Shown here: positions 4,830 to 40,139 of the stretch, piece by piece
How positions within the stretch are numbered: the stretch's first letter is position 1
How the letters are laid out: every line of letters starts with the position of its first letter
Source: Candidatus Woesearchaeota archaeon
GTDB lineage: Archaea > Nanobdellota > Nanobdellia > Woesearchaeales > DSVV01
DNA: 48,105 bases
Assembly: GCA_043813525.1 (NCBI GenBank)
Contig: JBDRKY010000115.1
Span: 1 to 48,105, forward strand
Direction of reading: 5' to 3'
Made by a program: the position numbers and the translations under genes
The notes under the pieces: generated by a model
Database searches by the model: none
What the model saw: only the letters and a program-made list of their open reading frames with translations
What the model was told of the DNA's origin: nothing

Positions 4830-5038
4830 AAATCCCAAATCCCAAACCCCAAATCCCAAATCCCAAATCCCAAATCCCAAATCCCAAATCCCAAATCCCA
4901 AATCCCAAATCCCAAACCCCAAATCCCAAATCCCAAACCCCAAATCCCAAAAAGGAGCTACGCCCTATATTATTTTTGTTTTTGGGATTTGTTTTTGTTG
5001 GGATTTGTTTTTGTTGGGATTTGTTTTTGTTGGGATTT
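4830..5038 (+). repeat. Inverted heptamer-array element, copy 1: 17 x AAA(T/C)CCC, a 29-nt core, then 4 x GGGATTT at 16-nt period
   Basis: Counted directly: heptamers 4830-4948, core AAAAAGGAGCTACGCCCTATATTATTTTT 4949-4977, GGGATTT at 4984, 5000, 5016 and 5032. Confidence 0.95.
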
Positions 5039-5070
5039 ACTGCTGTAGGCAGTTAAGATTAAATAATAAA

Positions 5071-19200: not shown

Positions 19201-19248
19201 AACTAAGATTATAATTATAATAAATGAAAGTTTATTAAAGCATTTCAT
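16234..19248 (-). CDS. Secreted multidomain protein with a peptidoglycan-binding-like domain and a possible C-terminal clan CD protease-like domain (cassette gene E2)
   Basis: Signal peptide ending SASA; VQRAVGADETGVYDKQTIAKVKEWQ...VDGRFGRQS (PGBD pattern); C-terminal VFTISSHS...LVSTSACLS. Confidence 0.7.
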   Translation of the reverse strand: MKCFNKLSFIIIIILVFLIVSLSASAVCPPKCSQAELIQLVQTDPKAAYNVDQFQTVIYTGGTVLDDPALAKDFFRKNPGQMMVYRSQAQKYLLRKGKIDSKLMQIYLQQGVYIDNNDFNIARRYLKLSKFDTSADKKIFQTYLTKLKSLSATDRSIAKRYFTKSNGKLINENAETRKLFSKYLKSEGVDSYGILGPVKSFSNDGVLNGKNGAININDYIGKNREYYAIKVVEDGSIRVVSKQKQTKTIPVYDAVASAQQLKEAGEISKRVEGYKFMMKYLGMNPSDYEYIGEMEGKIALKIVPVIKETETETVRSVGLDFTGDLKLDQETGKFKMSKGTLRAVKVKGGSDITFGSKAFTGKFEEVQGIEFASPTHVTVDDYYKVGSEEKIVNGRKTNSRARPEIRILQSEDGTPATVKRIKYEPYGDYTYIDSDGSEVDYVSEKIDKGVLEVKGAFNLNKYSQADTKVKLVVPRSKDDPMDNALTINDVTVLPHDKSGTKIFFPEQKVGYDEQSNLFVKFTKDGIMSAGQEVRVKINPAALVKNEIANGKWGTEMMILPSRGYFTDGDYPKQGTGAYDSLIRVQRAVGADETGVYDKQTIAKVKEWQSKTILDGRKIKVDGRFGRQSLLAYLQNTQGTIDLKTQKTFYHSSVKAKDGKIQITGFGNVDVTAGRKVYAFKSETELDEEEGAEKLSESLDNDKLDEGDEDEPTVTKAEFAGFGLYKVPGLNPSQAAKDVTVPLEFEAGNVLLPQKHFQAIIDRTNPRFMPYYRFNRQTAYEQSGNFIDSLVNPELVAEGVEIRQEYMDMIQDGKLRVLYVAGKRDEASATIYHDANILIPEGPEELSSPSTKRFTKQYPIKGSDGKQLDVEVVVAYSQAQAEQELAKGGVDVFTISSHSTSYGQFSLYHRTRGGINPNVFSNYVDSNPTLSLVSTSACLSKGRIYPKLKSALGPQTDFLLTQTRVGKDATSTVLAGILTGQSKQDIARIANAEEKAASYVVIKGS

Positions 19249-22987: not shown

Positions 22988-25900
22988 TCATTTCTTTGTA
23001 AATCCAGTATAACTCAAAGTTCCGCAGTCAATATCACCTTTTTCATTCAATCCAAACGTAGCTCCTGTTAGATGATTGCATATAGGCTCCTTATAATGCT
23101 CATTATCCATAATCTTAAGGCAGACATAATCAAACCTGCACTCTGGTGAATTTTCACAATCAAAAGAAGTATCATCCCCTGCATAATGCATCTGATGAAC
23201 ACCTAAAGGATTATTGACTGCAAACTCATCTTTCCATCCTTTTCCGTCTGCTGATGAAAATGATTTTTTACTAGTGCATTTATTGTATAGATAAACAATA
23301 CCATGCACAGGACCTATTGTTTTCATAGTAAAAGCATAACGATAATACTGATCTGTAATCTTCTCTCTTTCACCGCCAAGCATCACAATAATCTCATTCT
23401 TGTCAAGATAACTCATGTTATGTGCGAAATTATGCTCCTGTGTTATAGATGTTCCCATCAACAAATCAACTTCCTGAGGGCCTGTATTATAATAATCAAC
23501 CTTGCACATAGCACTATATATGCTATTTTCTAATTTTGAGAAAGCATTTCCTGTCCAGTCATCAAGAAGATTGCCAAAAACAGTCTCAACCTGCGACCTA
23601 AACTCAAAATCAAGATTATCATAAAGATTATCCATCCTCTTCTGCGCACCTGAACAATCAGTTCCTGCTTCTTTATTGCTATATTTCGCTGCATCGCATT
23701 TCTTAATCATATTCTCAACAACATCAACAGGATCATCAACACAAGATGTTTTTCCACCAAAAGTTGTGCAATGCTTGTCACCTGTGCTTTTTTGTGTACA
23801 TTCACCCTCTAACTTATCACATCTAACTTTTGTACAGCCCTCTTTGTTTGGTTTGGTACATAACTTATGCTTGCCTTGATTCTCAGAATCATCCTCAACA
23901 TAAACACTTCCCTCAACACCATCTATAATACTTGCATGAGCAAAAGTAAATGATGCCTCTCCTGGATTACATGACGTTGCAGTATCATCACAAGCAGAAA
24001 CATCACCATCCTTATCTAAACCTGCAACATTCGTAGGTGGTTTGTATTCCAATGCTTTTTGTTTGTCTGTTTTTGCTGGTTCTGCTGCTGGTTTTGATGC
24101 TGGTTTTGATGCTGGTTGTTCTGTTGGATTAGTACTATCATTACTATTTTCAATATTTTTATTCACCTCATCTAAAAATTGATTAATTTTTGTTATTAAT
24201 TCATCAGTTAGTGAGCCTTTTTTCAATATTTTTAAGAAATAATCTTTAGCTATAACATTATCACCATTCATCTTCCGTGCAATAGCTGCTTGATATAATA
24301 TACCTAATCTTCCAGTTTCTTTAAATAACTTTTCAAATTCTTTGGCAGCTTCATTATAATTTCCAGAATCAGTATAAAGAGATCTAGCATTAAGGAGACG
24401 TCTGTTTTGTTCTGGGGTAAGATTTGATCGTTGTACTGCTTGAGGCTGCTGTTCTGCATCTGTTGGTGATTCTGTCTGAGCTGTAGCTGTTGTTTTTTCT
24501 GAAGTCTGACTTGGTTTTGAAGCAGATGTATCAACAGTACTAACAGCATTCATACTTTCAAACCCGTCTTTATCATCACTTGGCTTTGCTTTTGCTTTGT
24601 TTTCATTAGTCTTAGGTACATAATTCCCCCCACCAGAATAATATTTAGTCCCAGTCTTATCTACTAAAAGACCATCTGAATCAACATAATATTCATCACT
24701 ACTTCCAGGATTTACAATATATACCCCTTCAACATCTGATGCAAAATAATCAGTACCACCTAAATTAACAACTTTATCTTTATCCCATGATGTCTGATGT
24801 TGGGCTGGTGGTGATTCTGTTAGTGGTTCTGCAGTTGATGCTGATTCTTTACTTACAGGAGGTTGTGGAGCTGTTTGAACAAGAGATGAAGGTTGACCAT
24901 CAGGTGGACTATTAGTTGATGTTGCTAAAAATGAATTACGTGGTTGTTTCAAAACAATACCATTAGATAATTTAACATAAACATAGTCAACATCATTCTC
25001 TTTTGCATTAAAAATAGTTGTACCTGTTTCATGATCAACAGAAATTTTAGTTGCTCCTTTAGGAACAGCATTTACTTTAACAGGAAGCACAACTTGTGTT
25101 TGTGTTACTCCTTGTGTTTGTGCTGGTTTTACTTCTGTTGGTGCTCCTGCTTCTGCTGGTGCTCCTGCTTTTGCTGGTGTTCCTGCTTGTACTGAATCAG
25201 GTCTATTCTTAATTAAAATATCATTAAATTGTTTCAACTGATTGCTTTTAACTTGAGATAATTGCTGAATCTGTTCAGATGTCAAAGGAGTATCATCATT
25301 AAACCAACCACCATCAATGACTGGTTTTCCATCTACAAACTTCACATCTTTATCAAAACCAGTTACCTGAACTTTAATATTGCCATTATCATCAACATAA
25401 AACTTAGTGCCACCAACATCTTTTGGATTTTCTTCTGTTGGTGGTGGAGATATAGGTTGTTGTTGTGCTGATTGTGCTTGTTGTTGTACTGGATTTGCCA
25501 ATTTTGATGGTGGACCCATTTCTAATCCTGCAATTTCCTCTACAATTATAGTTGTACCTTTCGTAGGATCTCCACCTTTGCCAACTGCTACAGTATATTC
25601 AGCATCACCTACAGCATAAGTAACATGTGTTCCTTTTGCTAAAGGCTTGCCATCTGCACCTAAGAAAGCACCTGATGTTCTATCATAAACAGCAATATCA
25701 CCATTTGAAAGTTTGCCTGTTGAAGTATGAGTCTTAACGTTACCATTAGAATCTATGCTTTGATAAGTATTGCCAACCTTAACAACAGCATCTTTCACAG
25801 GAGAACTATATTGATCAAGATAAAGTGTCTCATCACCAACCTTTGTCATGACAACTTTTTTACCATCTAATGTAATATGTGAATCAGCAGAATATGACTG

Positions 25901-27682
25901 ACCATTAAAAATAAACTTTTTCTCACCATTATCTAAAGTAACAACACCAATAAACATCTCTACTGGCTTGCCACTATCTGTTATGTAATACTTGCCTTCA
26001 CCAGGAACAAAGATAACCCCTGCAGGACCAGAATTACTTGGAGTTGTTCCATAAAAAGAAACTGGAACAGTTGGAGCAGATTGACCTGCGTTACCTAATT
26101 GTGATTCCTGCACCATGACATAATGACCTGTTTTATCTGCAATAAGAGTGCCTGGAGCCAACTGCATTAAAGACATACCTTGATTATCTGTTGCAATCTC
26201 AAATAATTGACCGTCTTTTTGAACAACTGGCTTACCATCATGAAGACCATAATCAGCTACATGCTCTTTTCCATATTGATCAACATAATATGTTACCTCA
26301 CCAGATGGAGTTGATTTTGTGACAAAATTTTCAGTGACTACATTTCCACTTGAATCATATAATCCAACCTGAGACTGAGCAGTACCATCAGCATTTACTG
26401 ATTTCGCCTTGTATACAGGACCGCCATTTGCATTCACTCCTTCCTGCTCTAGAATCATCAGCACTTTACCCTCATCCCCTACATATGATTTAGAATTATC
26501 ATCTCCCTGCACCCAGCCAGTAAAACTCGTTATTGGCTCTGAACCTTGTTGATAAACCATATAACTATTTGTTTTTTCATCTAATACAACTGTCTGTCCG
26601 TCTTGTGTTGTCTGTTTAAAATATGTTCTTGGATAACCATTGTTTTCAACCACAACAAGAGTAGAACTATCTTCAAAAACATCACCTTGTTCTAACTGAA
26701 CAATCACACCAGATGGATTACGTTTTGCATAAGTTGTTTTGCCGTTACTATCAACCTTAATAACCAAATTTGGTTTTCCATGCTGATAACCAACATCAAC
26801 AACAGATTGAAAGCCAGTTGAGGTAAATTCCAGCCCATTATTACCGCTATCTCCTAATCCTTGAACATCAACCCCACTAACATAAGCAAGACCAAAATCA
26901 TTAGCTGCTGCTTGTGCCTGACCACTTCCTTCTTTAAGAGTACCATCTTCTATATATCCAAATGTCCCAGAATTTCCACTTCCAGAACTTACAGGTATCT
27001 TAACACCTTTAGGAACTAATTGATATGTTGAATCAGTCTTGATACAAGGTTTGCCACTACATAAATAAACTGATTTTCCAGTAGGTGTTTTAAACATTGT
27101 GGGTTGAACATCAGATGATGTTTTATATTCTTCAACTTTCGGCATACTTTGCTTTGCAGTAGCAACTACTGAAGAATCTTCAATCGTACCAAGTGAATAT
27201 GTCTGTAAATTTTTTGCATTATTTTGAGTCAATATTGTTGACAGATCATTGTCATTGAAATCAGTTGTCAATTGTTCATTATATTCTAAATGAGAAGAAT
27301 ATGAACCATAACCATAATACACTTTGGGCTTATCATCATTAGTTGGCATAACAGTTACAACAAGATTTTGTGAATTATCTAATTTAACATCTAATAATTT
27401 AGCATTAGCATCACCTGTTTTTATGTCATCTGTCCTGAATATATGTCCATTATAAGAATACCATTTTCCTGCTTTTAGGTTATCACCAACATTTACAGGA
27501 ATTGCATTCCCTGATGAACTTCCAGCAATTAATTGAGTTTGTGCTGATTGTGCTAATCCAACAAGATTAGAATCAAATTTAGAATTCTGCTTATATTCTG
27601 GGCTGGTAAAGATAGTCAGGCCTACTATAATCATAGCTAATGTGATAAATATCAATGCTTTTCTGAACTTTTTTTTAGGCAT
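22988..27682 (-). CDS. Very large exported protein (cassette gene B2) with beta-rich repeats, low-complexity linkers, a TPR-like block and a Cys-rich C-terminus
   Basis: 1564-aa ORF with an N-terminal TM/signal; TPR-like YTDSGNYNEAAKEFEKLF...LYQAAIARKMNGD; C-terminal domain resembles 4159-4818. Confidence 0.8.
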   Translation of the reverse strand: MPKKKFRKALIFITLAMIIVGLTIFTSPEYKQNSKFDSNLVGLAQSAQTQLIAGSSSGNAIPVNVGDNLKAGKWYSYNGHIFRTDDIKTGDANAKLLDVKLDNSQNLVVTVMPTNDDKPKVYYGYGSYSSHLEYNEQLTTDFNDNDLSTILTQNNAKNLQTYSLGTIEDSSVVATAKQSMPKVEEYKTSSDVQPTMFKTPTGKSVYLCSGKPCIKTDSTYQLVPKGVKIPVSSGSGNSGTFGYIEDGTLKEGSGQAQAAANDFGLAYVSGVDVQGLGDSGNNGLEFTSTGFQSVVDVGYQHGKPNLVIKVDSNGKTTYAKRNPSGVIVQLEQGDVFEDSSTLVVVENNGYPRTYFKQTTQDGQTVVLDEKTNSYMVYQQGSEPITSFTGWVQGDDNSKSYVGDEGKVLMILEQEGVNANGGPVYKAKSVNADGTAQSQVGLYDSSGNVVTENFVTKSTPSGEVTYYVDQYGKEHVADYGLHDGKPVVQKDGQLFEIATDNQGMSLMQLAPGTLIADKTGHYVMVQESQLGNAGQSAPTVPVSFYGTTPSNSGPAGVIFVPGEGKYYITDSGKPVEMFIGVVTLDNGEKKFIFNGQSYSADSHITLDGKKVVMTKVGDETLYLDQYSSPVKDAVVKVGNTYQSIDSNGNVKTHTSTGKLSNGDIAVYDRTSGAFLGADGKPLAKGTHVTYAVGDAEYTVAVGKGGDPTKGTTIIVEEIAGLEMGPPSKLANPVQQQAQSAQQQPISPPPTEENPKDVGGTKFYVDDNGNIKVQVTGFDKDVKFVDGKPVIDGGWFNDDTPLTSEQIQQLSQVKSNQLKQFNDILIKNRPDSVQAGTPAKAGAPAEAGAPTEVKPAQTQGVTQTQVVLPVKVNAVPKGATKISVDHETGTTIFNAKENDVDYVYVKLSNGIVLKQPRNSFLATSTNSPPDGQPSSLVQTAPQPPVSKESASTAEPLTESPPAQHQTSWDKDKVVNLGGTDYFASDVEGVYIVNPGSSDEYYVDSDGLLVDKTGTKYYSGGGNYVPKTNENKAKAKPSDDKDGFESMNAVSTVDTSASKPSQTSEKTTATAQTESPTDAEQQPQAVQRSNLTPEQNRRLLNARSLYTDSGNYNEAAKEFEKLFKETGRLGILYQAAIARKMNGDNVIAKDYFLKILKKGSLTDELITKINQFLDEVNKNIENSNDSTNPTEQPASKPASKPAAEPAKTDKQKALEYKPPTNVAGLDKDGDVSACDDTATSCNPGEASFTFAHASIIDGVEGSVYVEDDSENQGKHKLCTKPNKEGCTKVRCDKLEGECTQKSTGDKHCTTFGGKTSCVDDPVDVVENMIKKCDAAKYSNKEAGTDCSGAQKRMDNLYDNLDFEFRSQVETVFGNLLDDWTGNAFSKLENSIYSAMCKVDYYNTGPQEVDLLMGTSITQEHNFAHNMSYLDKNEIIVMLGGEREKITDQYYRYAFTMKTIGPVHGIVYLYNKCTSKKSFSSADGKGWKDEFAVNNPLGVHQMHYAGDDTSFDCENSPECRFDYVCLKIMDNEHYKEPICNHLTGATFGLNEKGDIDCGTLSYTGFTKK

Positions 27683-28864: not shown

Positions 28865-31800
28865 CTAATACTCTGGCGTTGTGCCAAACTCTTTTCTCTG
28901 GCTTTCAAAATCATCCTCTACCTTGTCATCATCATCACTGTCATCGCCCCAGTCAAACATATCCTTAAGCTCATCTGCAAGCTGCTGGATGTTGGTTATC
29001 AGGCTGGCAAAGGCAAGAGCTCCAACAATGCCATTCTTTATCCTTACTCCTGCACAGCTCAATCTCTCAGCTTTTGTAACACCTGTACATCCAACTTCAA
29101 ATAATCTTGATGCCAATGACGAGACAAGCTTGACACTGAACTGCCTCAAAAGATCAGGAAGTATATGAGCAAACTGGCCAAATGTGAGCATACAGACTAT
29201 TCTCCACGTCAAATCAGGACAGTCTTCTATGTCTTCACCTAAAAGATAAGCCTTGTTCATGCAGGTATTCTGCGCAACCAATGCTCTTTTGACAAGCTCT
29301 AAAGTATTTTTGATAGTAGGAATGCAAGGAGGCCAACAAATCAATGCCACCCAAAAATTTTTATGAGGATCAAATGGGAACCTTATAGTAGAGGAACCAG
29401 CCCAATAATCTTTTGGATCAATTGGCTTGCCAGGATTTGCCTTGTTTAATTTTTCCAGCTCTGTCTCTGACAATGGACCTGCACCAAGGCCTGCATCTGC
29501 CCATAACTGATCAGGCGACCAACTATCTATGTTCCACTTTCCGCCTGTTATCTTTGTGTTCCATGCCTGTGAACATGATGAGCATAAAGTAAGGTCGCAA
29601 AAGAATCCTAAGCTTAAGATTTCTTTGCTGTTCCATGGAGGATCATCTGAATTTGCATTTGAATCCTTGCTTCCTGTCCACAATGTATTAAGCATGTCTG
29701 CACCTAATTTACATTCTTTTGCTGCTGCTTCTGCAGGTGCATAAGCTGCTCCAACACCCTCAAATATCATACATATATCATTCCATATCTGCATCACAAG
29801 ATTGATGACTTTACAGAATGGAGCTATCTTCATTATGAAATCAAGGACATCTATTATCTTATCAAGAACATCAATCGCATCTTTATATTCCAAAATCTTA
29901 TCAAGTGTGCTGTCAGCAGGATTTGTGAATGGGGTTGCACTCAAAGGAATAACAGCTGAAAAGTAAAATGCTTCATTTGGTGTGTAAATCTTCTTGCCGG
30001 ATTTTGATGTTTGAACAATATCACCTTTACAAGCTATGACTAATGGTTCAGGAGCCACATTAGATGCAGTAGAAGCTACTGTTTCAGTCTTAGCTTCTTC
30101 TTTATCATCAAATTGTGCTATGCCAAACAATATCTCCTTCACTTCTCTGCTCTGTGTTGGTCCTAACAAAGGATATGTCTGTGATACAATAGCAACAGGT
30201 TTCATGCTGCCTTCAGCAAATGCTTCACCAATGCTTGCTGTGCATTCCCTTATATTAAAATCATGGACAAATGATGAATCTGATTTTCTATATTTATTAA
30301 GATCTAATTCCATTCTGAACAAGGTCTGGGTGCTCATCTTCAGGAAATTCCTGTTAAGCATATAATCACTGCCAAACGCAGGAAGTTTAGTAACATCAAT
30401 CTTAAACTCATCTTCAAAAAAGTCAACCTCACCTTCTTTTGCCTGGTAAACAGTGAAAGTATCTGAGCTTGCAGTTGCAGTATTCTCTGCTAAATCTGTT
30501 GCACTCAAAGTAAACTTATAATTGCCTGATTTTGAAATAGTAGGCAATTCCCAAATACAATCATAGACAAACTGCTGCGCTAATTCTTCATTAATCTCAC
30601 AGCCTGTCACTGGCAATGGATCAGACCAAATAGTCTTATCACTTAATTGCGCAGTGATTTTCGCAAGATTAAGAGGACTATTAGCTTCTTGGAGCTGTGC
30701 TTTGATAATGATGACATCACTCTCTGCTGTTGTGATTGGATAAGATACTTCTGTCTCTTCTGTTTCTCCTGTTGCTTGTCCTGCTATTGCTTGACCTGCT
30801 GTTGCTTGTCCTGCTATTGCTTGTCCTGCTATTGCTTGTCCTGCTATTGCTTGTCCTGCTATTGCTTGTCCTGCTATTGCTTGTCCTGCTGTTGCTTGAC
30901 CTGCTGTTGCTTGTCCTGCTGTTGCTTCATCTGCACCAGATACATCTCCACTAGATGAAGCTACTGATGTTTCTCCACTTTCTCCAATAGATGCTGATGA
31001 ACCTCCACCAGAACTCCCACTTATAGCACTAGAACCACCATCAACACTCAATCCATAAGATGCAGCTGACATCACTTTTATTGAATCCTTGACAAAGACA
31101 GGAGCTGTTCCGTCATAATAAAGTTCCTGTGATAATTCTCCAAATTCTGAACTTACTGCATTTCCTGCTATATCATGAGTATCAGAATGAACTACAATCT
31201 TACCTTTATACAGCATCAGATAATTGTTCTCATCAAAATAAGGTTTAGCATTCTTAATATTTTTAGGAGCCACATTATCCCATTTACATTGATAACCACC
31301 ATCTAGCTGAATACATTCACTTGGAGAAACCTTTGAATTGCCATTTATCTCTGTCATGTCAATCCATACCATATCCTTAGTAAGACCAGACTGCTGTTCA
31401 ATAATTTCTACATATATAGTATTCTTTGTCGTGCCATTAAGATATGGACCAAGATCAGTGTATATGCCTGCCAGCATTGGTGGAGTCTCATCTTCTTTTA
31501 AATCAAGACTATAAGATGATTCAGCTGAATTGCCATCATTATCAGTAATTACAATCTTAAGGCTAAGTTCTGCTGTACCTCCTTGATTATCCAGTTCAAT
31601 ACCTTTCCACCTGAACTGATATGTGGTAACTTTATCCTCTCCTGTACCTTCTGTTATTGCCTCAACATCTGAAGCTGTTTTTTTCTTGTAATTTGATTTA
31701 CTTGGATTCAAACCTGAAAAATCACCTATTGCATTTGCTGTGCCTAATGCATTGTCATCTGTAACATTAAGATAGATATCAACAGATGGTTTCTCATCTT

Positions 31801-32821
31801 TCTTGATATAACCTAATATATTGCCATCTTTTTTTACAACCAATGAGCCATCATTAATCTCAGGAGCAGTAAGATCCAAATTTTCTTTATCGCATTTTTC
31901 AATCTTATTGTCAACATTATCAACTGCCTTTATGCAAAACTCAACCTCTCCGCCTGCAATACCAAGCTCTTGATATGTTTTTGAGACTGTCTTTTCATAA
32001 TCACATCCTTCAAGATCAGCAGCAGCGACTGTATAAAAAGAATCACCTGCAATTGAATCGTCTTCTCCATCTGCACTGCTTTCTCCATCTGCACTGCTTC
32101 CTCCATCTGCGCTACTTTCCCCATCTGCACTGCTTTCTCCGTCTGAAGCACCTGCTGATGCAGATAAACCTGTGCCTTCTTTCATATATAATGATATCTC
32201 TTTAAGACCACTGCATTTACCAGAGCATTCAGAAGAAATGCAAGCTATCTCCTCAACATCAATGCCAAATTTGACTTTCTGGTCTGATGCTTTTTTGCTT
32301 GTTGTGAATTTGACAATCTTTGGCTTTTCAGAATCAACAATAATCTTACCTGTTTTCTTGCTCAATGATACAAGATAAGTATCTGTGAGCTCAACATTGA
32401 AATCCACAACACCACCTTTATTATTATATTGTGATGTCTTAAAAGTGCAGTCATACATACCAGCCTCACTGCCTGATACACAATCTTCAGGATAATGTAT
32501 AAAATTGTCTGCAAAAGTTATCCTTACCTGTTTAGTATCATCAAAACTTTCACCAGTATACAACAGACTTACCTTAATAAATATGTAATCATCATCAGCG
32601 CTTGATGTATAGCCCTCAATATTATCTTTTCCCATCGCTGATATATTGCTAATCTTACCCTGCAGTCCAGGATCTTCCAATGGATCCACAGCATAGACAG
32701 AGCTTACATACACAGGTAACATTATAACAAGACATATCATAAAAGAGGCAATGAGCTTCAATGTAGCTGTAGCTAATTTCTTATTCCCTTTATAATTATC
32801 ATTTGTTTTTTCTATTACCAT
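28865..32821 (-). CDS. Large exported Cys-rich protein (cassette gene A2), paralog of 266-4162
   Basis: Signal peptide also ending SSVYA; GKDNIEGYT matches GNDGVEGYT of A1; shared C-terminal Cys pattern. ATG 32821 avoids overlap with the upstream gene (track start 32890). Confidence 0.8.
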   Translation of the reverse strand: MVIEKTNDNYKGNKKLATATLKLIASFMICLVIMLPVYVSSVYAVDPLEDPGLQGKISNISAMGKDNIEGYTSSADDDYIFIKVSLLYTGESFDDTKQVRITFADNFIHYPEDCVSGSEAGMYDCTFKTSQYNNKGGVVDFNVELTDTYLVSLSKKTGKIIVDSEKPKIVKFTTSKKASDQKVKFGIDVEEIACISSECSGKCSGLKEISLYMKEGTGLSASAGASDGESSADGESSADGGSSADGESSADGEDDSIAGDSFYTVAAADLEGCDYEKTVSKTYQELGIAGGEVEFCIKAVDNVDNKIEKCDKENLDLTAPEINDGSLVVKKDGNILGYIKKDEKPSVDIYLNVTDDNALGTANAIGDFSGLNPSKSNYKKKTASDVEAITEGTGEDKVTTYQFRWKGIELDNQGGTAELSLKIVITDNDGNSAESSYSLDLKEDETPPMLAGIYTDLGPYLNGTTKNTIYVEIIEQQSGLTKDMVWIDMTEINGNSKVSPSECIQLDGGYQCKWDNVAPKNIKNAKPYFDENNYLMLYKGKIVVHSDTHDIAGNAVSSEFGELSQELYYDGTAPVFVKDSIKVMSAASYGLSVDGGSSAISGSSGGGSSASIGESGETSVASSSGDVSGADEATAGQATAGQATAGQAIAGQAIAGQAIAGQAIAGQAIAGQATAGQAIAGQATGETEETEVSYPITTAESDVIIIKAQLQEANSPLNLAKITAQLSDKTIWSDPLPVTGCEINEELAQQFVYDCIWELPTISKSGNYKFTLSATDLAENTATASSDTFTVYQAKEGEVDFFEDEFKIDVTKLPAFGSDYMLNRNFLKMSTQTLFRMELDLNKYRKSDSSFVHDFNIRECTASIGEAFAEGSMKPVAIVSQTYPLLGPTQSREVKEILFGIAQFDDKEEAKTETVASTASNVAPEPLVIACKGDIVQTSKSGKKIYTPNEAFYFSAVIPLSATPFTNPADSTLDKILEYKDAIDVLDKIIDVLDFIMKIAPFCKVINLVMQIWNDICMIFEGVGAAYAPAEAAAKECKLGADMLNTLWTGSKDSNANSDDPPWNSKEILSLGFFCDLTLCSSCSQAWNTKITGGKWNIDSWSPDQLWADAGLGAGPLSETELEKLNKANPGKPIDPKDYWAGSSTIRFPFDPHKNFWVALICWPPCIPTIKNTLELVKRALVAQNTCMNKAYLLGEDIEDCPDLTWRIVCMLTFGQFAHILPDLLRQFSVKLVSSLASRLFEVGCTGVTKAERLSCAGVRIKNGIVGALAFASLITNIQQLADELKDMFDWGDDSDDDDKVEDDFESQRKEFGTTPEY
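30771..30926 (-). repeat. In-frame 15-nt tandem repeat, 10 x A(T/I)AGQ
   Basis: GCTATTGCTTGTCCT-type units on +; the protein reads ATAGQ/AIAGQ ten times. Confidence 0.95.
32063..32144 (-). repeat. In-frame 18-nt tandem repeat (ADGESS, about 4.5 copies)
   Basis: TTCTCCATCTGCACTGCT-type units; protein SDGESSADGESSADGGSSADGESSADGE. Confidence 0.9.
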
Positions 32822-32858
32822 TTTAATCACAATTATTTTAGCTTGAAACTTCAAGCCT

Positions 32859-35123
32859 TTATTTACTAAATATAGGTTGTATCTTATCATAATTTATGCT
32901 TGAACATGCATCTCTATGGCTAAGAGCAATGAAATAATTCTCTATCTTCTGTGGTTTTCCTTCATCAAATACATATAATGTCATCTCCTTCTTGCCATCA
33001 ATATCATCTGGTTCAATTGTCATGATATAATTTGCTCCGCCAGAGATTATTGAATCTACTTGCTGATCATCATCTGGATAATACACATCCTTGTCTTTTT
33101 CGAATAAAGCCCCATCAATATGATATGATTCGCTGTTCTTCTTGATATCAAGCTCACCTTTCCACTTCTCTCCTCTAATCAGCATGATATCAACCTGATA
33201 CACACCAGGAGCAAGCTCTATCTCTGGCTTATTTTCTTCTGTGTAAAATGCAAAAGTATAAGGGTTTGTTGAAGCGATAGTAGGATCAATCCTTTTCAGA
33301 TTTATAATCGCCTGCTCATTCTTGTCAAGCACAGAAGCTGATGTATAAAGATTGCAACCAACAACTTGGCCATCTTTCAGTATGACGCCCTGTTTAGGTT
33401 TCAGTCCAGCTTTCTGCGCTGCCTCTAAGTCTTCTTTTGGTATAGGAGCAATTGTAAAATATTTCTGTATGTTCATACTGAGCTTTGTCAGTTTTGCCAG
33501 CTCAATCATTGTAGTAAATTCCTTATTAGGCTGCACATCACCAATGATAACTGCATCTTCACCATAACCTTTCTTTTCTACAACAACTGTTGCTCCGCCA
33601 AGGCAAGGAGGAAACTTAGATACCATTGCGCCTGATTGATCTGTCTTGCCTATAAAACATCTGTCGCTGAAAGGTGTTGAATTAACTAGTGTACCATTCT
33701 CATCATACTCATCTACAACAGAAGGGCCGCACTGATAATAAACCATAGCATCTGACAAAGGAGCTGAAGTCTGCTTGTCTATAACATTAACAACGCTCTC
33801 CTTACTTGTCTTCTGATCTTCACCGCATAGATATGTCTCCCTTGGCATTGTCTCAAGGCCAAGAACATCCTTGATGTCAGCTCTTGGGAAATTTGCTTTT
33901 GTTACAACCAACAGCGGAAACTGGAATATAAAAGGCTGCTGATTTATCCTGGAATCCTTGTCAACAAGAGTCACAAGCACAGGATATTTGAATGAATAAG
34001 GAAATTTATAGATGAACACACATTTCCTGCCAAATAAATAATTAAAATCCATCTGTGTAGGAGGTTTTATCATGCCTTTCTGACCCAGGTCAAGCTCAAG
34101 AGGAAAATTAGGGCGGTATTCAAACATAGTAAGAAAATCAGGATAACTGCTTTTGCTGACCTCTTTTGTCATCATGTCAAATATTCCCTGCATTGTAGAC
34201 CTCTTCTCTTCATCTTTCTGCTCACCCTGAGAAACTATAATCCTCTCAAAATCACTATTTCGTATTTTCAAGTATGGAAGGTTCATCGCAAGCACATTCT
34301 TAAAGCTGGAATGCACCTTATCTTCCATCCAATAAGTCATATCATTGCAGTCCACAACCTGCAAACCTCCAAACAAAGGCGGCAGATAATCAGGATTGAC
34401 ACGGCCATACATTGTGATAAGGTTCATTGTATTCTGCTCAAGAAAAGTTGTAGTCTCTTCGTAAGAAGCGATTTCCCTTGCAAATGTATAAGCTTTCTTC
34501 ACCCTTGCATTAACTTTTGTGCTGAAATGCTCAAGCTTGACTAAATTCTGATCCTTAATCAGATTCAAAGGATAATTCAATGTGACAACAACATCCTCTT
34601 CTGTGAATATTACTGATACAGACATCTCACCTAATGCTTCAACTACAGTACCCTGCTGCTTAAATATATCAAAATCATTGATGCATGTCGGCATATTCTC
34701 TGTGATATATCTTTCTAATTGATCCTGTACAGAGCCATCATTTGCGCTTGTCTTCTCAAGTTTTGGCATCTCACTCCTGTCAGCGCCGCCAACCCTCTGA
34801 TAATACCAATATGGAATAGCCTGATATTCTGAAACCTTAAGAACTGGAGATTCTAATGGCGCAAATTCATTCATATCTAATGGATATTGGTCTAAATATA
34901 TATGACCGCCCTGCTGACCAAGAACAACTATGCCCTGTTCAGTGATCTTCTGAAGACATTCCTGTGTATATGCAGTGACTGGGTCAGCTTGTTTCTCACC
35001 GATAATATCTTCTTTAGTAACAATACCTGTAAAATAAACAACACCAAAAACTAGAATCAATGCGACTAAACCTATGATAATAAAAATAGTAGCCTGAGCT
35101 GATTTATTCCTCTTTTTATACAT
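32859..35123 (-). CDS. Class III signal peptide protein, long form (paralog of 5973-8495)
   Basis: KSAQ-ATIFIIIGLVALIL leader; PVTAYTQECL...LGQQGGHI; FLEQ..P.YLPPL; YQCGP...CFIGKTD...PPCLGG. ATG 35123 follows GAAGGTG (track start 35153). Confidence 0.82.
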   Translation of the reverse strand: MYKKRNKSAQATIFIIIGLVALILVFGVVYFTGIVTKEDIIGEKQADPVTAYTQECLQKITEQGIVVLGQQGGHIYLDQYPLDMNEFAPLESPVLKVSEYQAIPYWYYQRVGGADRSEMPKLEKTSANDGSVQDQLERYITENMPTCINDFDIFKQQGTVVEALGEMSVSVIFTEEDVVVTLNYPLNLIKDQNLVKLEHFSTKVNARVKKAYTFAREIASYEETTTFLEQNTMNLITMYGRVNPDYLPPLFGGLQVVDCNDMTYWMEDKVHSSFKNVLAMNLPYLKIRNSDFERIIVSQGEQKDEEKRSTMQGIFDMMTKEVSKSSYPDFLTMFEYRPNFPLELDLGQKGMIKPPTQMDFNYLFGRKCVFIYKFPYSFKYPVLVTLVDKDSRINQQPFIFQFPLLVVTKANFPRADIKDVLGLETMPRETYLCGEDQKTSKESVVNVIDKQTSAPLSDAMVYYQCGPSVVDEYDENGTLVNSTPFSDRCFIGKTDQSGAMVSKFPPCLGGATVVVEKKGYGEDAVIIGDVQPNKEFTTMIELAKLTKLSMNIQKYFTIAPIPKEDLEAAQKAGLKPKQGVILKDGQVVGCNLYTSASVLDKNEQAIINLKRIDPTIASTNPYTFAFYTEENKPEIELAPGVYQVDIMLIRGEKWKGELDIKKNSESYHIDGALFEKDKDVYYPDDDQQVDSIISGGANYIMTIEPDDIDGKKEMTLYVFDEGKPQKIENYFIALSHRDACSSINYDKIQPIFSK

Positions 35124-35227
35124 TATATTAACACCTTCGATTATATAAACCATTTGCAGTATACTATATAAATGTTTTGGAATTTTGAGGCTGGGTCCAA
35201 GTTCGGGCTTTTAGATATTAATATTAT

Positions 35228-35393
35228 AAATCCCAACAAAAATAAATCCCAAATCCCAAAAAAACTAAATCCCAAAAAGAATATAGAGCGTAGCTCCTTT
35301 TTGGAGTTTGGGATTTGGAGTTTGGGATTTGGAGTTTGGGATTTGGAGTTTGGGATTTGGAGTTTGGGATTTGGAGTTTGGGATTTGGGATTT
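35228..35393 (-). repeat. Inverted heptamer-array element, copy 2: 13 x AAATCCC/AAACTCC, the 29-nt core, then 4 x GGGATTT (read on -)
   Basis: Heptamers 35303-35393; core on - is AAAAAGGAGCTACGCTCTATATTCTTTTT (27/29 identical to copy 1); AAATCCC on + at 35228, 35244, 35251 and 35267. Confidence 0.95.
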
Positions 35394-35532
35394 AAATTAA
35401 TATCCCCCACAGCCCGAACTTATACCCAGATTGGGAATTTTAGTTCCACAAAAATTATTGTTTTAATTATTGAAAATTAAAATATAATTCTAAAATAAGA
35501 TATTTTATAAACAAAATTAATATACTTTATCT

Positions 35533-36351
35533 ATGGATTGTTTAGACGCAATTATTGAAGGAATCAGAAATGCAGAATCTATTACTGATAATAAAAAAAG
35601 CATTCTGATAAATTTTGCAGAAGAAGTTAATTGCAGTAAAATTAGGTTTGACCTTGAATTCATACTTAAAAACTATAGGTATATTTCCAACAACAGCGCA
35701 GAGAGGCTTGCATTATTAGATTCAAGGCATCAACAGGAAAAGGCCAGCAGAATTGTAGAAACATTGCCAACTGTATTAAATTATTCATTAAAAAGAACTG
35801 AAAGCATCTATGCATTATTAGATTCAAGGCATCAGCAGGAAGAAACAAACAGAATTGTAGAAAAATTGCCAGCTGTATTAGGTTGTTCATTAGCAAGAAC
35901 TGAAAGCATCTATGCATTATTAGATTCAAGGCATCAGCAGGAAGAAGCAAGCAGAATTGTAGAAAAATTGCCAACTGTATTAAGTTGTTCATTAAAAAGA
36001 ACTAAAAGCATCTATGCATTATTAGATTCAAGGCATCAGCAGGAAAAAGCAAGCAGAATTGTAGAAACATTGCCAGCTGTATTAAGTTATTCATTAAAAA
36101 GAACTAAATTAAATTATCAGTATTTAGAAGAAAAAGACATTGATGCAAACGGATATGTAGAAATGTCACCTTATCTGCTTTATTTTTCACCTGATTTTAT
36201 AAAAAATAATCAACTAGGTGAATTGTTGGAAATAACAAGAAAATTTGAAGAAAAAAGAGATCATAAAGAATTACCATCTGAAATAAGATTTGATGATGGG
36301 AGTGTTTCAAGGTTTGACAGGTATTCCTTTAATAATCATTGCTTTGATTAA
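35533..36351 (+). CDS. 34-aa helical repeat protein, mTERF-like
   Basis: Four near-identical units ALLDSRHQQExxxRIVExLPxVLxxSLxRTxSIY plus degenerate flanks (VEMSPYLLYFS). TTTTATAAA lies about 22 nt upstream. Confidence 0.7.
   Translation: MDCLDAIIEGIRNAESITDNKKSILINFAEEVNCSKIRFDLEFILKNYRYISNNSAERLALLDSRHQQEKASRIVETLPTVLNYSLKRTESIYALLDSRHQQEETNRIVEKLPAVLGCSLARTESIYALLDSRHQQEEASRIVEKLPTVLSCSLKRTKSIYALLDSRHQQEKASRIVETLPAVLSYSLKRTKLNYQYLEEKDIDANGYVEMSPYLLYFSPDFIKNNQLGELLEITRKFEEKRDHKELPSEIRFDDGSVSRFDRYSFNNHCFD
35709..36108 (+). repeat. 102-bp tandem repeat, about 4 copies
   Basis: TGCATTATTAGATTCAAGGCATCA recurs at 35709, 35811, 35913 and 36015. Confidence 0.95.
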
Positions 36352-36449: not shown

Positions 36450-39400
36450 ATGGAAAGTACAAATAATATTATAAATAATATTGTAAGGACATCAACAAAA
36501 AATAATATCCTTGATGAGCTTAAGGAAAATATACTTGTGTTAGACGGAGCTATGGGAACTTTGGTACAGGAAAAGTACAGGAGCTCTGTTGATATCAACT
36601 ATCTGAATGTTATAGATCATAATTTTATCAAATCTATCCATAAACAATATTGGAAAGCTGGCTCTGATATAGTGCTGACAGGAACATTTGGCGCAAACAG
36701 GCTGAAACTTAAGGATTATGGATTGCAGGATAAAACAGCACTGATTAACCAAAAAGCAGTTGAGAATGCGAGACAGGCAGCATGCTGTTATGTCGCTGGC
36801 GATATAGGGCCATTAGGACAATATATAAAACCTTTAGGCGAGCTTGATTTTGATGAAGCTGTAAGCATATTTAGGGAACAGGCTGATAATCTGAAAGAAG
36901 CAGACCTTATCCTTGTTGAGACAATCGCTGACATAAAAGTCCTGAAAGCAGCAATCATCGGTGTGAAGGAATCAAAAGCAACAACAGAGAAAAACCTGCC
37001 TTTGTTCGTAAGCATGACATTTGAAGGAAAAACAACACCGACAGGAACAAGGATAAGGGGATTTGTTGATGTTGCAGAAAGCCTTGGTGTTGATATAATA
37101 GGAGTTAACTGCAGTGGAGGGCCTGTTGAATTATTCAGTGTTGGCAAAAAGATGAGAGAACTTACAGACTTGCCTATCGCATTACAGCCAAACGCAGGAC
37201 TGCCTAAACTTGTGAACGGAAAGACTGTATTCAATTTTCCTCCAGAAGATTTCAGATTGTTTGCAGAGAAATGTGCAAAAATTGGAATAAATCTTATAGG
37301 AGGATGCTGTGGTACAACTCCTGAGCATATAAGAGCGATTGCTGAAGCTGTGAAAGAAGTTGGAAATGAAATAGGCTCGAAGCTTGAATCCACGAGCCAC
37401 GAGCCACAAGCTACAAGCCACGAGCCACAAGCCACAAACCACAAGCCTTTATTAAATAATCAAAGATACAGATTCTCTTCAAGAACAAAGACAATTGAAT
37501 ACGGCAGATTAGGGAATAAGACAATAATAGTTGGAGAAAGGATAAATCCAACAGGTAAAAAAGATTTCAAAGAAGAACTAAAACAAGGCAGAACAAATTA
37601 TGCTGTGAATGAAGCATTGGCACAAGTTAGTGAAGGTGCGCAATTATTAGACATAAATGTTGGTATTGCAGGGCTTGATGAAGAGACAAATATGGCTAAT
37701 GTCATCAGAGCAGTGCAGGATGTTGTTGATGCGCCTATTATCATCGATACTTCAGATGTGAATGTTCTGGAAAAAAGCTTGAAAGAAATTGCCGGAAAGC
37801 CATTGATCAATTCTGTTAACGGTAGCGAGAAAAGTTTAAAAGGAGTTTTACCATTGGCAAAAAAATATGGTGCTGCAATTATTGTGCTGTGTCTTGACGA
37901 AAATGGAATCCCTGAAACAACAGAAGGAAGAGTGAAGATTGCAAAAAGAATAATCAACAGAGCTGAAAGCATAGGCATCAGAAAGAATAATATAATCATT
38001 GATCCACTAACAATGACAATCGCGACAGATCCTGGCAACGAAAAAATCACATTAGAAACCATGAAAAAAATTAATGATATGGGATATTTAACAATACTTG
38101 GCATCAGCAATATCAGCCATGGACTGCCAGAAAGAGATCTGATTAATTCAAAATTCCTGAGGAAAGCTTCTGAACAAGGCTTAGGAATGGCAATAATCAA
38201 TCCAAAGACCTATAAAACTGCTTTTGGAAAAGAGTCAAATAAATTCGACCACTACCAGTCAAAGACTGGTGGCATGCTCGCTTCGCTCGGGTCGAATTTA
38301 CGACCCTTTTTTTCCACCAAAGATTATTGTTGTAAACCACCAATGAGATACATTGGTGGAAAAAAAGATTTTAATGATGCAGATGAGATTAATATTGCAG
38401 AGATAGTAAGACCAAAGATTATGAAAAGGGATTATTCTAAGATGGATATTAAGGATAAATTGTATCATGCAATCCTTTACGGCGACAGCAGCAACATTAC
38501 TATGTTTGTTGAGGAAGCTTTATGTTCAGGTAATTTTAAGCCTTTAGAAATTAATGATATACTTTCAAAAGCAATGAATAAAGTTGGTGAGCTTTTTGAA
38601 CTGAAAAACTATTATCTGCCGCAAGTTATTGCAAGTGCAAAAGCGATGAAAACTGCTTTTTGCATGATCAAAGAAGACATCAAGAAAAGAGCAGCAGAAG
38701 ACAACATAAATGGAAATATAAGCAGAAAAGACAAGAGAATAATGTTTGCGACAGTACAGGAGGATGTGCATGACATTGGAAAAAATCTGAACATTGCACT
38801 GCTTGAAGCAAATGGTTATGATGTAATAGATTTGGGGAAATCTGTGCCATCAAATATAATCCTGCAAAAAGTGATTGAAGACAGGCCAGATGTATTATGC
38901 CTGTCTGCACTGATGACAACAACAGCTCCATATATTAAAGATGTTATAGACATGCTAAGGGATAACAGCATAAACATACCAGTCATGGCTGGCGGTGCTG
39001 TTGTAACTGAAGAATATGCAGTAAAAATAGATGCTGAATATGCTAAGAACGCTGTTGAAACAGTAGATGTGATAAGAGAAATCCTTGGATATCAGAATGA
39101 GAGCATTGCTGATATTATTTATTGCGGAAAAAATGCCAGTTCAACAGATGAGAAAAAGAACAGGCTTATAATAGGTGTTGAGGTTGTTCCATTTCCTGAT
39201 GGAGAGCCATTCAGGAAGATGGTATATTATCTCAAGCAGCTCAAAGAATTGGATATAGATTTCATCAGCGTCACAAAAAGCGCAGGGGGAAGCATGAGAG
39301 CAGGCACACTGCCTATCGCATATTATGCGCAGGAGATACTGAAAAAACCAATACTTGCGCATTTTACGTGCAGAGAATTCTTTCCAGAAGAAGTTGAAAC

Positions 39401-40139
39401 TTCTTTGCTTGATCTATGGTATATGGGAATCAGAAATATTCTTGCATTAAGAGGGGATCCGCCTGGAGGGGTTGAGGATAACAAAAGCAAAGGCATCTAT
39501 AAATATGCTTATCAGCTTGTCGAACATATTAAGCTGTTGAATGACGGCAAATACCTGCCAAAGAAGTTTAACTCAAACAGAATTATTGAAGATATTAAAA
39601 AAAATCCTGAAAACATATTCAGTGTTAAAAAAGATGAGATTAATTTCAGCGATGGTGTAAAAACTAATTTTTCTGCCTGTGTTGCTGCGCATCCTGAGTG
39701 CTCTGATTGGGATGAGGAGATGAGATTCCTGAAAAAAAAACAGGATGCAGGTGCAGAATGGGCAATAACACAGATGATGTTTGATGCTGACGAATATGAA
39801 AGATATGTGAAAAAAGCAAGAGAATATGGGATAATAATGCCAATAGTTGTTGGAGTTAGGCCAATAACAAGTTCTAAACAAATTGCTTTTACAGAGAAAG
39901 TGTTTAAAGTGAAAGTTCCTGATGAGCTTAAGAAAATACTTGGTGCTGTGGAAGCTTCTGATAAAATAAATGAAAAAATTAAATTCAATGAGAAAGAATC
40001 ATATAACGCTGGTGTGGATTATATAATTAAATTCATCAATAAATTAAAAGAAAAAAACTGCCATGGTGTGCAGTTGTTTGTCCTTAATGATATTAAGATG
40101 CTAAGTGATGTAATGGCTGGCCTAAAAATAGATTGTTAA
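36450..40139 (+). CDS. metH: Cobalamin-dependent methionine synthase fused to a C-terminal methylenetetrahydrofolate reductase (MetF-like) domain
   Basis: LDGAMGT, GVNC and GGCCGTTPEH (Hcy/Zn); VGERINPTGKK (pterin); YLPQV and DVHDIGKN (B12); then DFISVT, AHFTCR, LALRGDPP, AAHPE and KKKQDAGA..AITQMMFD (MTHFR). Confidence 0.92.
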   Translation: MESTNNIINNIVRTSTKNNILDELKENILVLDGAMGTLVQEKYRSSVDINYLNVIDHNFIKSIHKQYWKAGSDIVLTGTFGANRLKLKDYGLQDKTALINQKAVENARQAACCYVAGDIGPLGQYIKPLGELDFDEAVSIFREQADNLKEADLILVETIADIKVLKAAIIGVKESKATTEKNLPLFVSMTFEGKTTPTGTRIRGFVDVAESLGVDIIGVNCSGGPVELFSVGKKMRELTDLPIALQPNAGLPKLVNGKTVFNFPPEDFRLFAEKCAKIGINLIGGCCGTTPEHIRAIAEAVKEVGNEIGSKLESTSHEPQATSHEPQATNHKPLLNNQRYRFSSRTKTIEYGRLGNKTIIVGERINPTGKKDFKEELKQGRTNYAVNEALAQVSEGAQLLDINVGIAGLDEETNMANVIRAVQDVVDAPIIIDTSDVNVLEKSLKEIAGKPLINSVNGSEKSLKGVLPLAKKYGAAIIVLCLDENGIPETTEGRVKIAKRIINRAESIGIRKNNIIIDPLTMTIATDPGNEKITLETMKKINDMGYLTILGISNISHGLPERDLINSKFLRKASEQGLGMAIINPKTYKTAFGKESNKFDHYQSKTGGMLASLGSNLRPFFSTKDYCCKPPMRYIGGKKDFNDADEINIAEIVRPKIMKRDYSKMDIKDKLYHAILYGDSSNITMFVEEALCSGNFKPLEINDILSKAMNKVGELFELKNYYLPQVIASAKAMKTAFCMIKEDIKKRAAEDNINGNISRKDKRIMFATVQEDVHDIGKNLNIALLEANGYDVIDLGKSVPSNIILQKVIEDRPDVLCLSALMTTTAPYIKDVIDMLRDNSINIPVMAGGAVVTEEYAVKIDAEYAKNAVETVDVIREILGYQNESIADIIYCGKNASSTDEKKNRLIIGVEVVPFPDGEPFRKMVYYLKQLKELDIDFISVTKSAGGSMRAGTLPIAYYAQEILKKPILAHFTCREFFPEEVETSLLDLWYMGIRNILALRGDPPGGVEDNKSKGIYKYAYQLVEHIKLLNDGKYLPKKFNSNRIIEDIKKNPENIFSVKKDEINFSDGVKTNFSACVAAHPECSDWDEEMRFLKKKQDAGAEWAITQMMFDADEYERYVKKAREYGIIMPIVVGVRPITSSKQIAFTEKVFKVKVPDELKKILGAVEASDKINEKIKFNEKESYNAGVDYIIKFINKLKEKNCHGVQLFVLNDIKMLSDVMAGLKIDC
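37390..37445 (+). repeat. 8 x heptamer CCAC(G/A)AG in the metH interdomain linker
   Basis: ccacgag ccacgag ccacaag ctacaag ccacgag ccacaag ccacaaa ccacaag. Confidence 0.9.
38240..38367. repeat. Palindromic REP/MITE-like insert within metH
   Basis: IR TAAATTCGACC/GGTCGAATTTA (38240-38250/38290-38300); inner hairpin ACCAGTC-AAA-GACTGGT; 15-bp IR CTTTTTTTCCACCAA/TTGGTGGAAAAAAAG (38306-38320/38353-38367). Confidence 0.8.

Follow-up and report, generated by a model that had tools for sequence, protein, structure and literature searches.

The 48,105-nt stretch analysed here (the window; contig JBDRKY010000115.1 of assembly GCA_043813525.1, from a tiny groundwater-dwelling Candidatus Woesearchaeota archaeon of the DPANN group) carries at 35533–36351 on the forward strand a gene of 272 codons plus stop that encodes a genuine mTERF-fold helical-repeat protein. 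The mTERF proteins are a family of repeat proteins that grip DNA or RNA, best known from mitochondria and chloroplasts. The gene belongs to a small, patchy family within the Woesearchaeota whose arrays run from 3 to about 14 units, and this family is a new archaeal member of the prokaryotic tandem mTERF-type repeat proteins. In its units the residues around a conserved proline vary, above all a di-residue at unit positions 28 and 29. Judging from its sequence relatives and predicted fold, the protein is probably a sequence-specific nucleic-acid binder; the reading we favour, at slightly better than even confidence, is that it recognises specific sequences in double-stranded nucleic acid, most likely DNA, acts as an accessory regulator or roadblock, and has its specificity tuned by this variable patch.

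The mTERF assignment stands because the sequence matches and the predicted fold agree. The Pfam model PF02536 (mTERF) matches residues 67–204 (E 7.6e-11) and scores 41.9 bits, where the curated cut-off is 23.1, and in a scan of the whole genome (1.65 Mb in 119 contigs, 89.7% complete, GC 32%) the protein, at 40.8 bits, was the only PF02536 match. A single-sequence search against PDB sequences returned chance-level matches only (calmodulin, E 0.01), and a family profile was needed: with 12 members, it retrieved human MTERF3 (3m66) at E 1.5e-8 and MTERF1 at E 3e-4. The AlphaFold2 model computed from the 12-member family alignment has a mean predicted local distance difference test score (pLDDT) of 88.4 and a predicted template-modelling score (pTM) of 0.79, with about the last 29 residues poorly predicted. 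When this model was compared with the PDB by Foldseek, the 17 best matches were all mTERF-fold chains (MTERF1, MTERF3, MTERF4 and one Tetrahymena mitoribosome chain) at probability 1.0; seven of the top eight were DNA-bound MTERF1 chains, likewise at probability 1.0, with template-modelling (TM) scores on the query (TMq) of 0.56–0.65 and an identity to the human proteins of 11–17%. An atlas structure search gave TM scores of 0.62–0.68 to eukaryotic mTERF clusters, and an atlas feature search, in which every score stayed below 0.9, yielded leads only. The sequence-only reading that had singled out this gene proposed an mTERF-type repeat protein in a prokaryote; the Pfam score, the MTERF3 profile match and the MTERF1–DNA chains at the head of the Foldseek matches bear it out.

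The model also shows the motif itself. Each unit consists, by DSSP, of helices of 14, 10 and 5 residues, the third of which opens at Pro24; this proline is present in 42 of the 43 canonical units compared below, and I3, F/L6, L7, I19, V20, L27 and L31 are nearly invariant. The window protein thus has the mTERF sequence signature, the three-helix motif and the superhelical fold alike. With the eukaryotic organellar mTERFs (human MTERF1, MTERF3 and MTERF4, and plant proteins) it shares the Pfam and profile matches, the three-helix motif with a proline opening the short third helix, a similar superhelix size, and an arginine at the position of the base-reading Arg251 of MTERF1. It differs from them in that it is archaeal, with no organelle, in that its units are strictly tandem and near-identical whereas the eukaryotic motifs are degenerate, and in its slight acidity and the low identity given above.

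The domain layout can be followed along the forward strand. A helical N-terminal cap (residues 1–55, 35533–35697; model helices 2–12, 19–32 and 41–46) carries in the family alignment the motif KK..IL..F..(E)VN...RF.L.FIL.N..IS..S.ER. Four repeat units follow at 35698–35799, 35800–35901, 35902–36003 and 36004–36105, and after them come a degenerate fifth mTERF motif and a C-terminal cap helix (36106–36267; model helices 188–244), located by the alignments; two alignments show the C-terminal cap motif ..Y.E.SPYLLYFSPDFI....L.ELLEITRKFEEKR to be kept across the family. The C-terminal tail (36268–36348) is of low confidence, with pLDDT below 50 from residue 244. According to the model, the N-terminal cap, the four motifs, the degenerate fifth and the C-terminal cap would form a single superhelix, comparable in size to human MTERF1 or MTERF3. 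By eye, the 272-residue sequence shows neither a signal peptide nor a membrane segment. The Pfam match, the homologues and the confident fold establish the open reading frame (ORF) as a real gene, and a TATA-box-like TTTTATAAA read from the sequence at 35503–35511 (+), about 25 nt upstream of the ATG, lies where it would fit a leaderless archaeal transcript.

Tandem Repeats Finder (TRF) reports the array at 35709–36105 with a period of 102, 3.9 copies, 91% matches and a score of 668; read in frame it resolves, as assembled, into four 34-residue units starting at 35698, 35800, 35902 and 36004, with the degenerate fifth beginning at 36106. The four 102-bp units had been recognised in the sequence-only reading, as had the residue pairs that follow P-x-V-L in them, which are indeed NY, GC, SC and SY from unit 1 to unit 4. 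Its further statement that variation is confined to a few positions holds in part: the di-residue is the most variable spot, yet the four units differ from one another at 13 of their 34 codons, including the four boundary codons 1–4 of unit 1, and nine codons differ among units 2–4 (codons 1, 15, 16, 17, 22, 25, 28, 29 and 32). All ten nucleotide changes among units 2–4 are non-synonymous, and the only synonymous differences in the array, three in number, are confined to unit 1, the most diverged and oldest-looking of the units. Pairwise DNA identity ranges from 79.4 to 95.1%, and the four motifs appear to have been homogenised recently. K15, T22 and Y29 are common to units 1 and 4, and E15, K22 and C29 to units 2 and 3; this pattern, together with a T/A alternation at position 25 along the units, makes the array a mosaic. 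Among the fragmentary short-read contigs of two groundwater metagenome DNA runs of low depth, no contig spanning the array was found. One 132-nt contig from run X2 (depth 6.8), which covers 35914–36045, has four base differences from unit 3, all of them non-synonymous and at the variable codons 15, 22, 25 and 28, and so spells an 'RC' unit; either a variant strain or a unit that the assembly lacks could account for it.

Relatives of the window protein are few. Its close relatives form five other clusters among 5.8 billion proteins, and an exhaustive library search returned 86 proteins at E ≤ 1e-3, 15 at E ≤ 1e-10 and 8 at E ≤ 1e-30, the protein itself counted. By the family profile, members occur in 3 of 401 genomes of the order, including the window's own. 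The Pfam model finds some mTERF-like match in 6 of 201 genomes of the order (4 above cut-off) and in 11 of 401 genomes of the phylum (6 above cut-off); these Pfam counts are lower bounds, because the family member of genome G332 is missed by the model, and several of the further PF02536 matches in the order fall in another mTERF-like subfamily. A single-protein search of genome contigs gave no relative among 55 pattern matches, and a search for longer homologues gave none at E ≤ 1e-8, a weak negative since relatives of 485–567 residues were found otherwise. The two relatives with a named record are both deposited as "hypothetical protein" of Candidatus Woesearchaeota archaeon.

The arrays differ widely in length, a point that the sequence-only reading had proposed to examine in homologues. 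The G332 protein (300 residues) has three units, the window protein and L018 have four, and P0007 has five; L019, L020 and L022 carry 9–10 canonical units, the L023 protein being identical to that of L022, and L021 carries at least 6 canonical units (7.0 TRF copies) on a truncated contig. The longest, from G279 (567 residues), has about 14 diverged, non-homogenised units when read by eye, of which 5 were picked up by a strict motif scan. All family members read, that of G279 included, have both the N-terminal cap motif and the C-terminal cap. In the long arrays of L019, L020 and L022 there is a higher-order period of 306 bp, or three units, which suggests that long arrays grew by duplicating three-unit blocks. 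The second, unrelated-looking mTERF-like subfamily of the same archaeal order comprises L002/L007 (genome G115), L003 (G061) and L004 (G068), proteins of 306–443 residues; L002, L003 and L004 share with the window family the order, the PF02536 matches and units of about 33–35 residues, and differ from it in their diverged units of the type LK.LG..D..IA..A.LLGR.P.TI..NY and in having neither its N-terminal nor its C-terminal cap.

The closest published parallel is bacterial. According to the available text of Hu et al. (Nucleic Acids Res 2024; PMC11417379), the proteins pTERF1 and pTERF2 bind specific double-stranded DNA with nanomolar affinity, as measured by SELEX, electrophoretic mobility shift assay and biolayer interferometry, and the pTERFs, with 3–11 units, are suggested to be reprogrammable. 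The statement in the sequence-only reading that mTERF repeats are mainly eukaryotic has accordingly been overtaken, at least as far as that text goes. The source genomes named there are all bacterial, most of them Bacillota, and the main text nowhere uses the word 'archaea' (PMC11417379). The window protein is likewise a prokaryotic protein of tandem mTERF-like units, and both groups vary in unit number (3–11 in pTERFs, 3 to about 14 here) and in arrangement. The authors describe pTERF1 as being without the conserved mTERF proline and leucine pattern (PMC11417379); unlike it, the window family keeps that pattern and passes the Pfam cut-off. A 2026 plant paper states, in its available text, that mTERFs are absent from prokaryotes (PMC12977773). 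In literature searches on mTERF, archaea, DPANN and pTERF, no description of an archaeal mTERF family was found among the matches listed.

Where the units vary was measured across the family, as the mean difference between pairs of units within a protein at each position, on nine arrays with 43 canonical units. The set leaves out the first unit of each array, which abuts the cap, one L018 unit put out of register by a two-residue insertion, the diverged G279 protein, P0005 (35-residue register) and the fragments P0003, P0004, P0006, P0008, P0011, P0012 and P0015, several of these being parts of L020 or L021. The difference is highest at positions 28 (0.67) and 29 (0.66), each of which varies in eight of the nine proteins, so that the di-residue picked out in the window's four units proves to be the most variable site family-wide. 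Positions 1 (0.54), 23 (0.49), 25 (0.48), 22 (0.45) and 32 (0.31) come next. Only at positions 28 and 29 does the difference within proteins exceed that between protein consensuses (0.67 vs 0.56 and 0.66 vs 0.50). Positions 12–15 behave in the opposite way, at 0.12–0.22 within and 0.69–0.86 between proteins; being homogenised within and diverged between proteins, they bear the signature of concerted evolution. Position 28 is occupied by G (18 units), S (18), R (5), A (1) and C (1), and position 29 by Y (21), C (18), S (2), H (1) and R (1). A Tyr/Cys alternation at the fifth residue after the proline (P+5) recurs in the distant arrays P0014, P0020 and P0023, which consist of near-identical mTERF units with periods of 35–36 and have 25–29% identity to the query; in P0014 the switch is independent of the two unit types of that protein. 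In P0017 the fifth post-proline position alternates between Y, F and L, and variability again peaks in the residues around the proline.

The model and the alignment with MTERF1 suggest where these positions lie. The short third helix ends with position 28, and position 29 sits in the following turn, after which Ser30 precedes the long helix that bears Arg33 in its first turn. In the profile alignment, Arg202 and Phe243 of MTERF1 fall at P+1, that is, unit position 25 (numbering via mutant chains), and Arg251 falls at P+9, unit position 33, where 40 of the 43 units have arginine. Arg202 and Arg251 contact bases directly in MTERF1, whose prolines cap helices beside the DNA, according to the available text of PMC4705650. 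The di-residue would thus be flanked by two known reading positions of MTERF1, the variable 25 and the invariant 33, and we infer that 28 and 29 sit at the tip of the unit that faces the nucleic acid; the arginine found at position 28 in five of the 43 units argues for solvent exposure there.

On this basis we envisage a protein that, like MTERF1 and the bacterial pTERFs, follows the groove of a double-stranded nucleic acid and grips it. Generic contacts would come from polar residues that are invariant in every unit (Arg10, His11, Asn17, Ser30 and Arg33), and the patch around Pro24 (positions 22, 23, 25, 28, 29 and 32, and position 1 of the next unit) would tune the sequence that is read. Arrays may lengthen and shorten through unit duplication while recombination homogenises them, with the differences at 28 and 29 persisting. 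In the cell, such a protein might act on a few targets, regulating them in a sequence-specific manner or serving as a roadblock to transcription.

Several observations weigh against this reading. The protein is not basic; it is slightly acidic, with an isoelectric point of 5.96 and a net charge of −4, and across the family the repeats come out close to neutral. Binding RNA or serving as an adaptor is likewise a known role of mTERF proteins. P+9, the main reading position of MTERF1, is invariant in the family, and the alphabets of the di-residue are narrow (G/S/R/N and Y/C), linked in the window by single transitions. In its favour, variability in at least eight of nine proteins in two columns was reached in 0 of 20,000 column shuffles, although that null treats the columns as equally mutable and is applied to nine proteins that are relatives, not independent samples. 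At the DNA level the evidence points both ways. The changes among units 2–4, all non-synonymous, speak for the reading, as does the low synonymous share of changes in the four most homogenised arrays (4 of 34 vs 29% expected, P 0.016); over the seven arrays with DNA that share is 90 of 258 (35%) vs 28% expected, slightly above expectation, so that positive selection does not act on the arrays taken together. Of the 168 non-synonymous changes, 99 fall in the seven patch columns, against 23 of the 90 synonymous ones; this too favours the reading, but the excess is partly circular because the patch was defined by amino-acid variability. On the other side, Tyr/Cys29 could serve for packing between repeats instead of reading, and no partner gene is conserved across the compared homologue loci.

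Tolerated, near-neutral variation at 28 and 29 is therefore a live alternative. On that account the protein binds nucleic acid, but the di-residue does not read it: the two sites are either the least constrained spots of the unit or a packing switch that sets the pitch of the superhelix, there is no modular code, and any specificity comes from the whole surface. The codons concerned lie one transition apart (AAT/AGT/GGT and TAT/TGT), tyrosine and cysteine are both fairly hydrophobic, the P+5 Y/C alternation of P0014, P0020 and P0023 would fit a general structural property of the motif, and the mappable base contacts of MTERF1 fall at P+1 and P+9, with none at P+4 or P+5. Set against this, sites that behave as neutral (12–15) homogenise within proteins and diverge between them, and 28 and 29 do the opposite; arginine, found at position 28, is no packing residue; and the pair adjoins the N-terminus of the helix that bears the arginine aligned to Arg251. 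We consider this account somewhat unlikely as a whole, and the patch-tuned binder of double-stranded nucleic acid remains the reading we prefer.

A bolder version of that reading would make the family a natural 'coded' mTERF, in which each unit reads a fixed step of DNA, positions 28 and 29 together with 25 specify the bases, and arrays of 3–14 units are modular and re-programmable. We regard this as doubtful, and the modular code is unproven. The comparison that comes to mind is with TALE proteins, which likewise have near-identical repeats of about 34 residues, a most variable di-residue at a helix end or turn, and a varying number of repeats. The likeness proposed in the sequence-only reading does not extend beyond design: the window protein has no Pfam match to the TALE family at E ≤ 1, and Foldseek, which puts mTERF-fold chains first, aligns the model to the TALE dHax3 with a probability of 0.2–0.4, TM scores of 0.16–0.19 (about 0.17) and a root-mean-square deviation of 16–17. 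The unit also has three helices where that of TALE has two, and its variable pair at 28–29 lies within a wider patch. The resemblance is an analogy of design, not homology.

Whether the favoured target should be DNA bears on a further alternative, an RNA-binding or adaptor mTERF resembling MTERF4 or the plant proteins mTERF4 and mTERF9, which would act in RNA processing or ribosome biogenesis instead of on DNA, either by binding a structured RNA such as ribosomal RNA (rRNA) or by bringing in an enzyme. MTERF4–NSUN4 and mitoribosome assembly intermediates do appear among the significant Foldseek matches, at ranks 9–16, the best profile match in sequence is MTERF3, the slight acidity of the protein would suit such a role, and mTERF-family members with RNA roles are on record in the available text of PMC7826268 and PMC4005652. 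We nevertheless judge it quite unlikely: a family found by its profile in 3 of 401 genomes of the order is patchy in a way unlike a core ribosome-biogenesis factor, a repeat number of 3 to about 14 is hard to square with a single conserved RNA target, DNA-bound MTERF1 chains are the best structural matches, and the only prokaryotic relatives assayed so far bind double-stranded DNA, according to the available text of PMC11417379. A protein–protein scaffold with no nucleic-acid role, for instance a surface or host-interaction factor of a symbiont-type archaeon, seems hardly probable. Helical repeats commonly mediate protein binding, the net charge is neutral to acidic, and the family is accessory, patchy and fast-changing; on the other side stand the lack of a signal peptide or membrane segment by eye, the fact that all characterised mTERF-fold matches are nucleic-acid binders or rRNA-bound adaptors, and the conserved arginine of each unit at the Arg251 position.

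A specific target had been suggested by the position of the gene, which the sequence-only reading tied to a nearby heptamer element and to the divergent gene cassette beyond it (its cassette 2). The element lies at 35199–35421 (no strand assigned) and has terminal inverted repeats AAGTTCGGGC ... GCCCGAACTT, arms of AAATCCC/TTTGGGA heptamers and a central core; the protein would bind the heptamers or the core and regulate the divergent giant-protein genes. The distance from the element's end to the start codon downstream is about 110 nt, and with some 23 array loci in 1.65 Mb a chance adjacency has a probability of roughly a few per cent per flanking intergenic region (a rough estimate). Both the heptamer arrays and this form of the gene are peculiar to this genome, and a protein of near-identical repeats would pair attractively with a tandem repeat in the DNA beside it. 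Yet the element behaves as a miniature inverted-repeat transposable element (MITE), because it has inverted termini and its roughly 23 loci occur in both orientations and in unrelated contexts; its heptamer arms, of 2 to 25 copies, are very variable and its central core is conserved. Double heptamers (at most 1 mismatch) number 108 in the window genome against 2 or fewer in every one of 20 further genomes of the family, and the latter figure is the level of the reversed-pattern control. None of the seven distinct homologue loci read carries heptamer arrays, and in both other family-member genomes the heptamer pair (2 mismatches allowed) is at control level or background (18 vs 14 controls in G332, 9 vs 2 controls in G279); gene neighbours are not conserved either. 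Following this co-occurrence test across genomes and homologue loci, we rejected the idea of heptamer binding as unsupported and consider it very unlikely; the adjacency is best read as a MITE insertion into the intergenic region. A second copy of the element in the window, at 4830–5040, is missing a recognisable terminal repeat on one side, and the ORFs at 35141–35410 (−) and 35172–35480 (+) were dismissed as artefacts of the heptamer array.

The genes around the mTERF homologues give no common theme. In the window the gene is flanked by a divergent 764-residue ORF that belongs to no Pfam family and, downstream, by a MetH–MTHFR fusion. At homologue loci the neighbours include a lipoprotein signal peptidase, a TenA-like gene, restriction–modification and helicase genes, HIT, RNase P Rpr2, PIN or a sigma-70-type gene, and next to the homologue in G332, a genome of the same family, lie an aEF-2-like GTPase gene and an L7Ae-like one, both identified by eye from the translations. 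The idea of a conserved neighbour was rejected, as the neighbours differ at every locus. The G279 gene (L017, 9433–11136) comes directly after a UvrD-type helicase, a DNA methyltransferase and a restriction/helicase subunit, all identified by eye, and before a DUF3800 gene, which may be a defence-island setting. In L020 the sigma-70-type gene (5514–6911, +) lies 58 nt downstream of the 10-unit mTERF homologue. The window genome has a full bacterial-type sigma-70 family protein as well, on contig C4 (L030, 964–2547, −; 527 residues, Sigma70_r2 E 4.7e-22), whose gene adjoins a PAC2-like gene recognised by eye.

Elsewhere in the window are a PAC2 proteasome-chaperone gene, gyrB and metG; with the many giant ORFs of the window, the aEF-2-like and L7Ae-like genes of G332 and the two named relatives, they point to a woesearchaeotal archaeon. 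The fusion gene downstream of the mTERF gene (36450–40139, +) encodes 1229 residues with S-methyl_trans, Pterin_bind and B12-binding domains and a C-terminal MTHFR; between its first two domains, CCACAAG is repeated 8.3 times in frame at 37390–37447, giving heptapeptides of the SHEPQAT type. Six ORFs of 764–1564 residues have no Pfam match at E ≤ 1e-4 (266–4162, 5973–8495, 16234–19248, 22988–27682, 28865–32890 and 32859–35153).

What the family offers is above all a way into the question of how mTERF motifs recognise their targets. To our knowledge no recognition code exists for mTERF, unlike for TALE, PPR and PUF proteins, mainly because the eukaryotic mTERF motifs are degenerate. Near-identical units in natural arrays of 3 to about 14 make a clean system for studying how an mTERF motif reads nucleic acid, and a variable di-residue that is unusually clean across the family brings the question of a recognition code within experimental reach. 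If the coded version were true, the mTERF fold would have its first recognition code, Archaea would have arrived at a TALE-like solution with mTERF as the scaffold, and the recurrent Y/C switch of the distant arrays would be part of a general mTERF code. If the protein is instead an ordinary accessory regulator, the result would still provide a useful annotation for proteins whose named copies are called hypothetical. The family extends canonical, Pfam-recognisable mTERF motifs to Archaea, where the 2024 pTERF report, as far as its available text goes, covers Bacteria, and archaeal mTERFs bear on the origin of the mTERFs of eukaryotic organelles.

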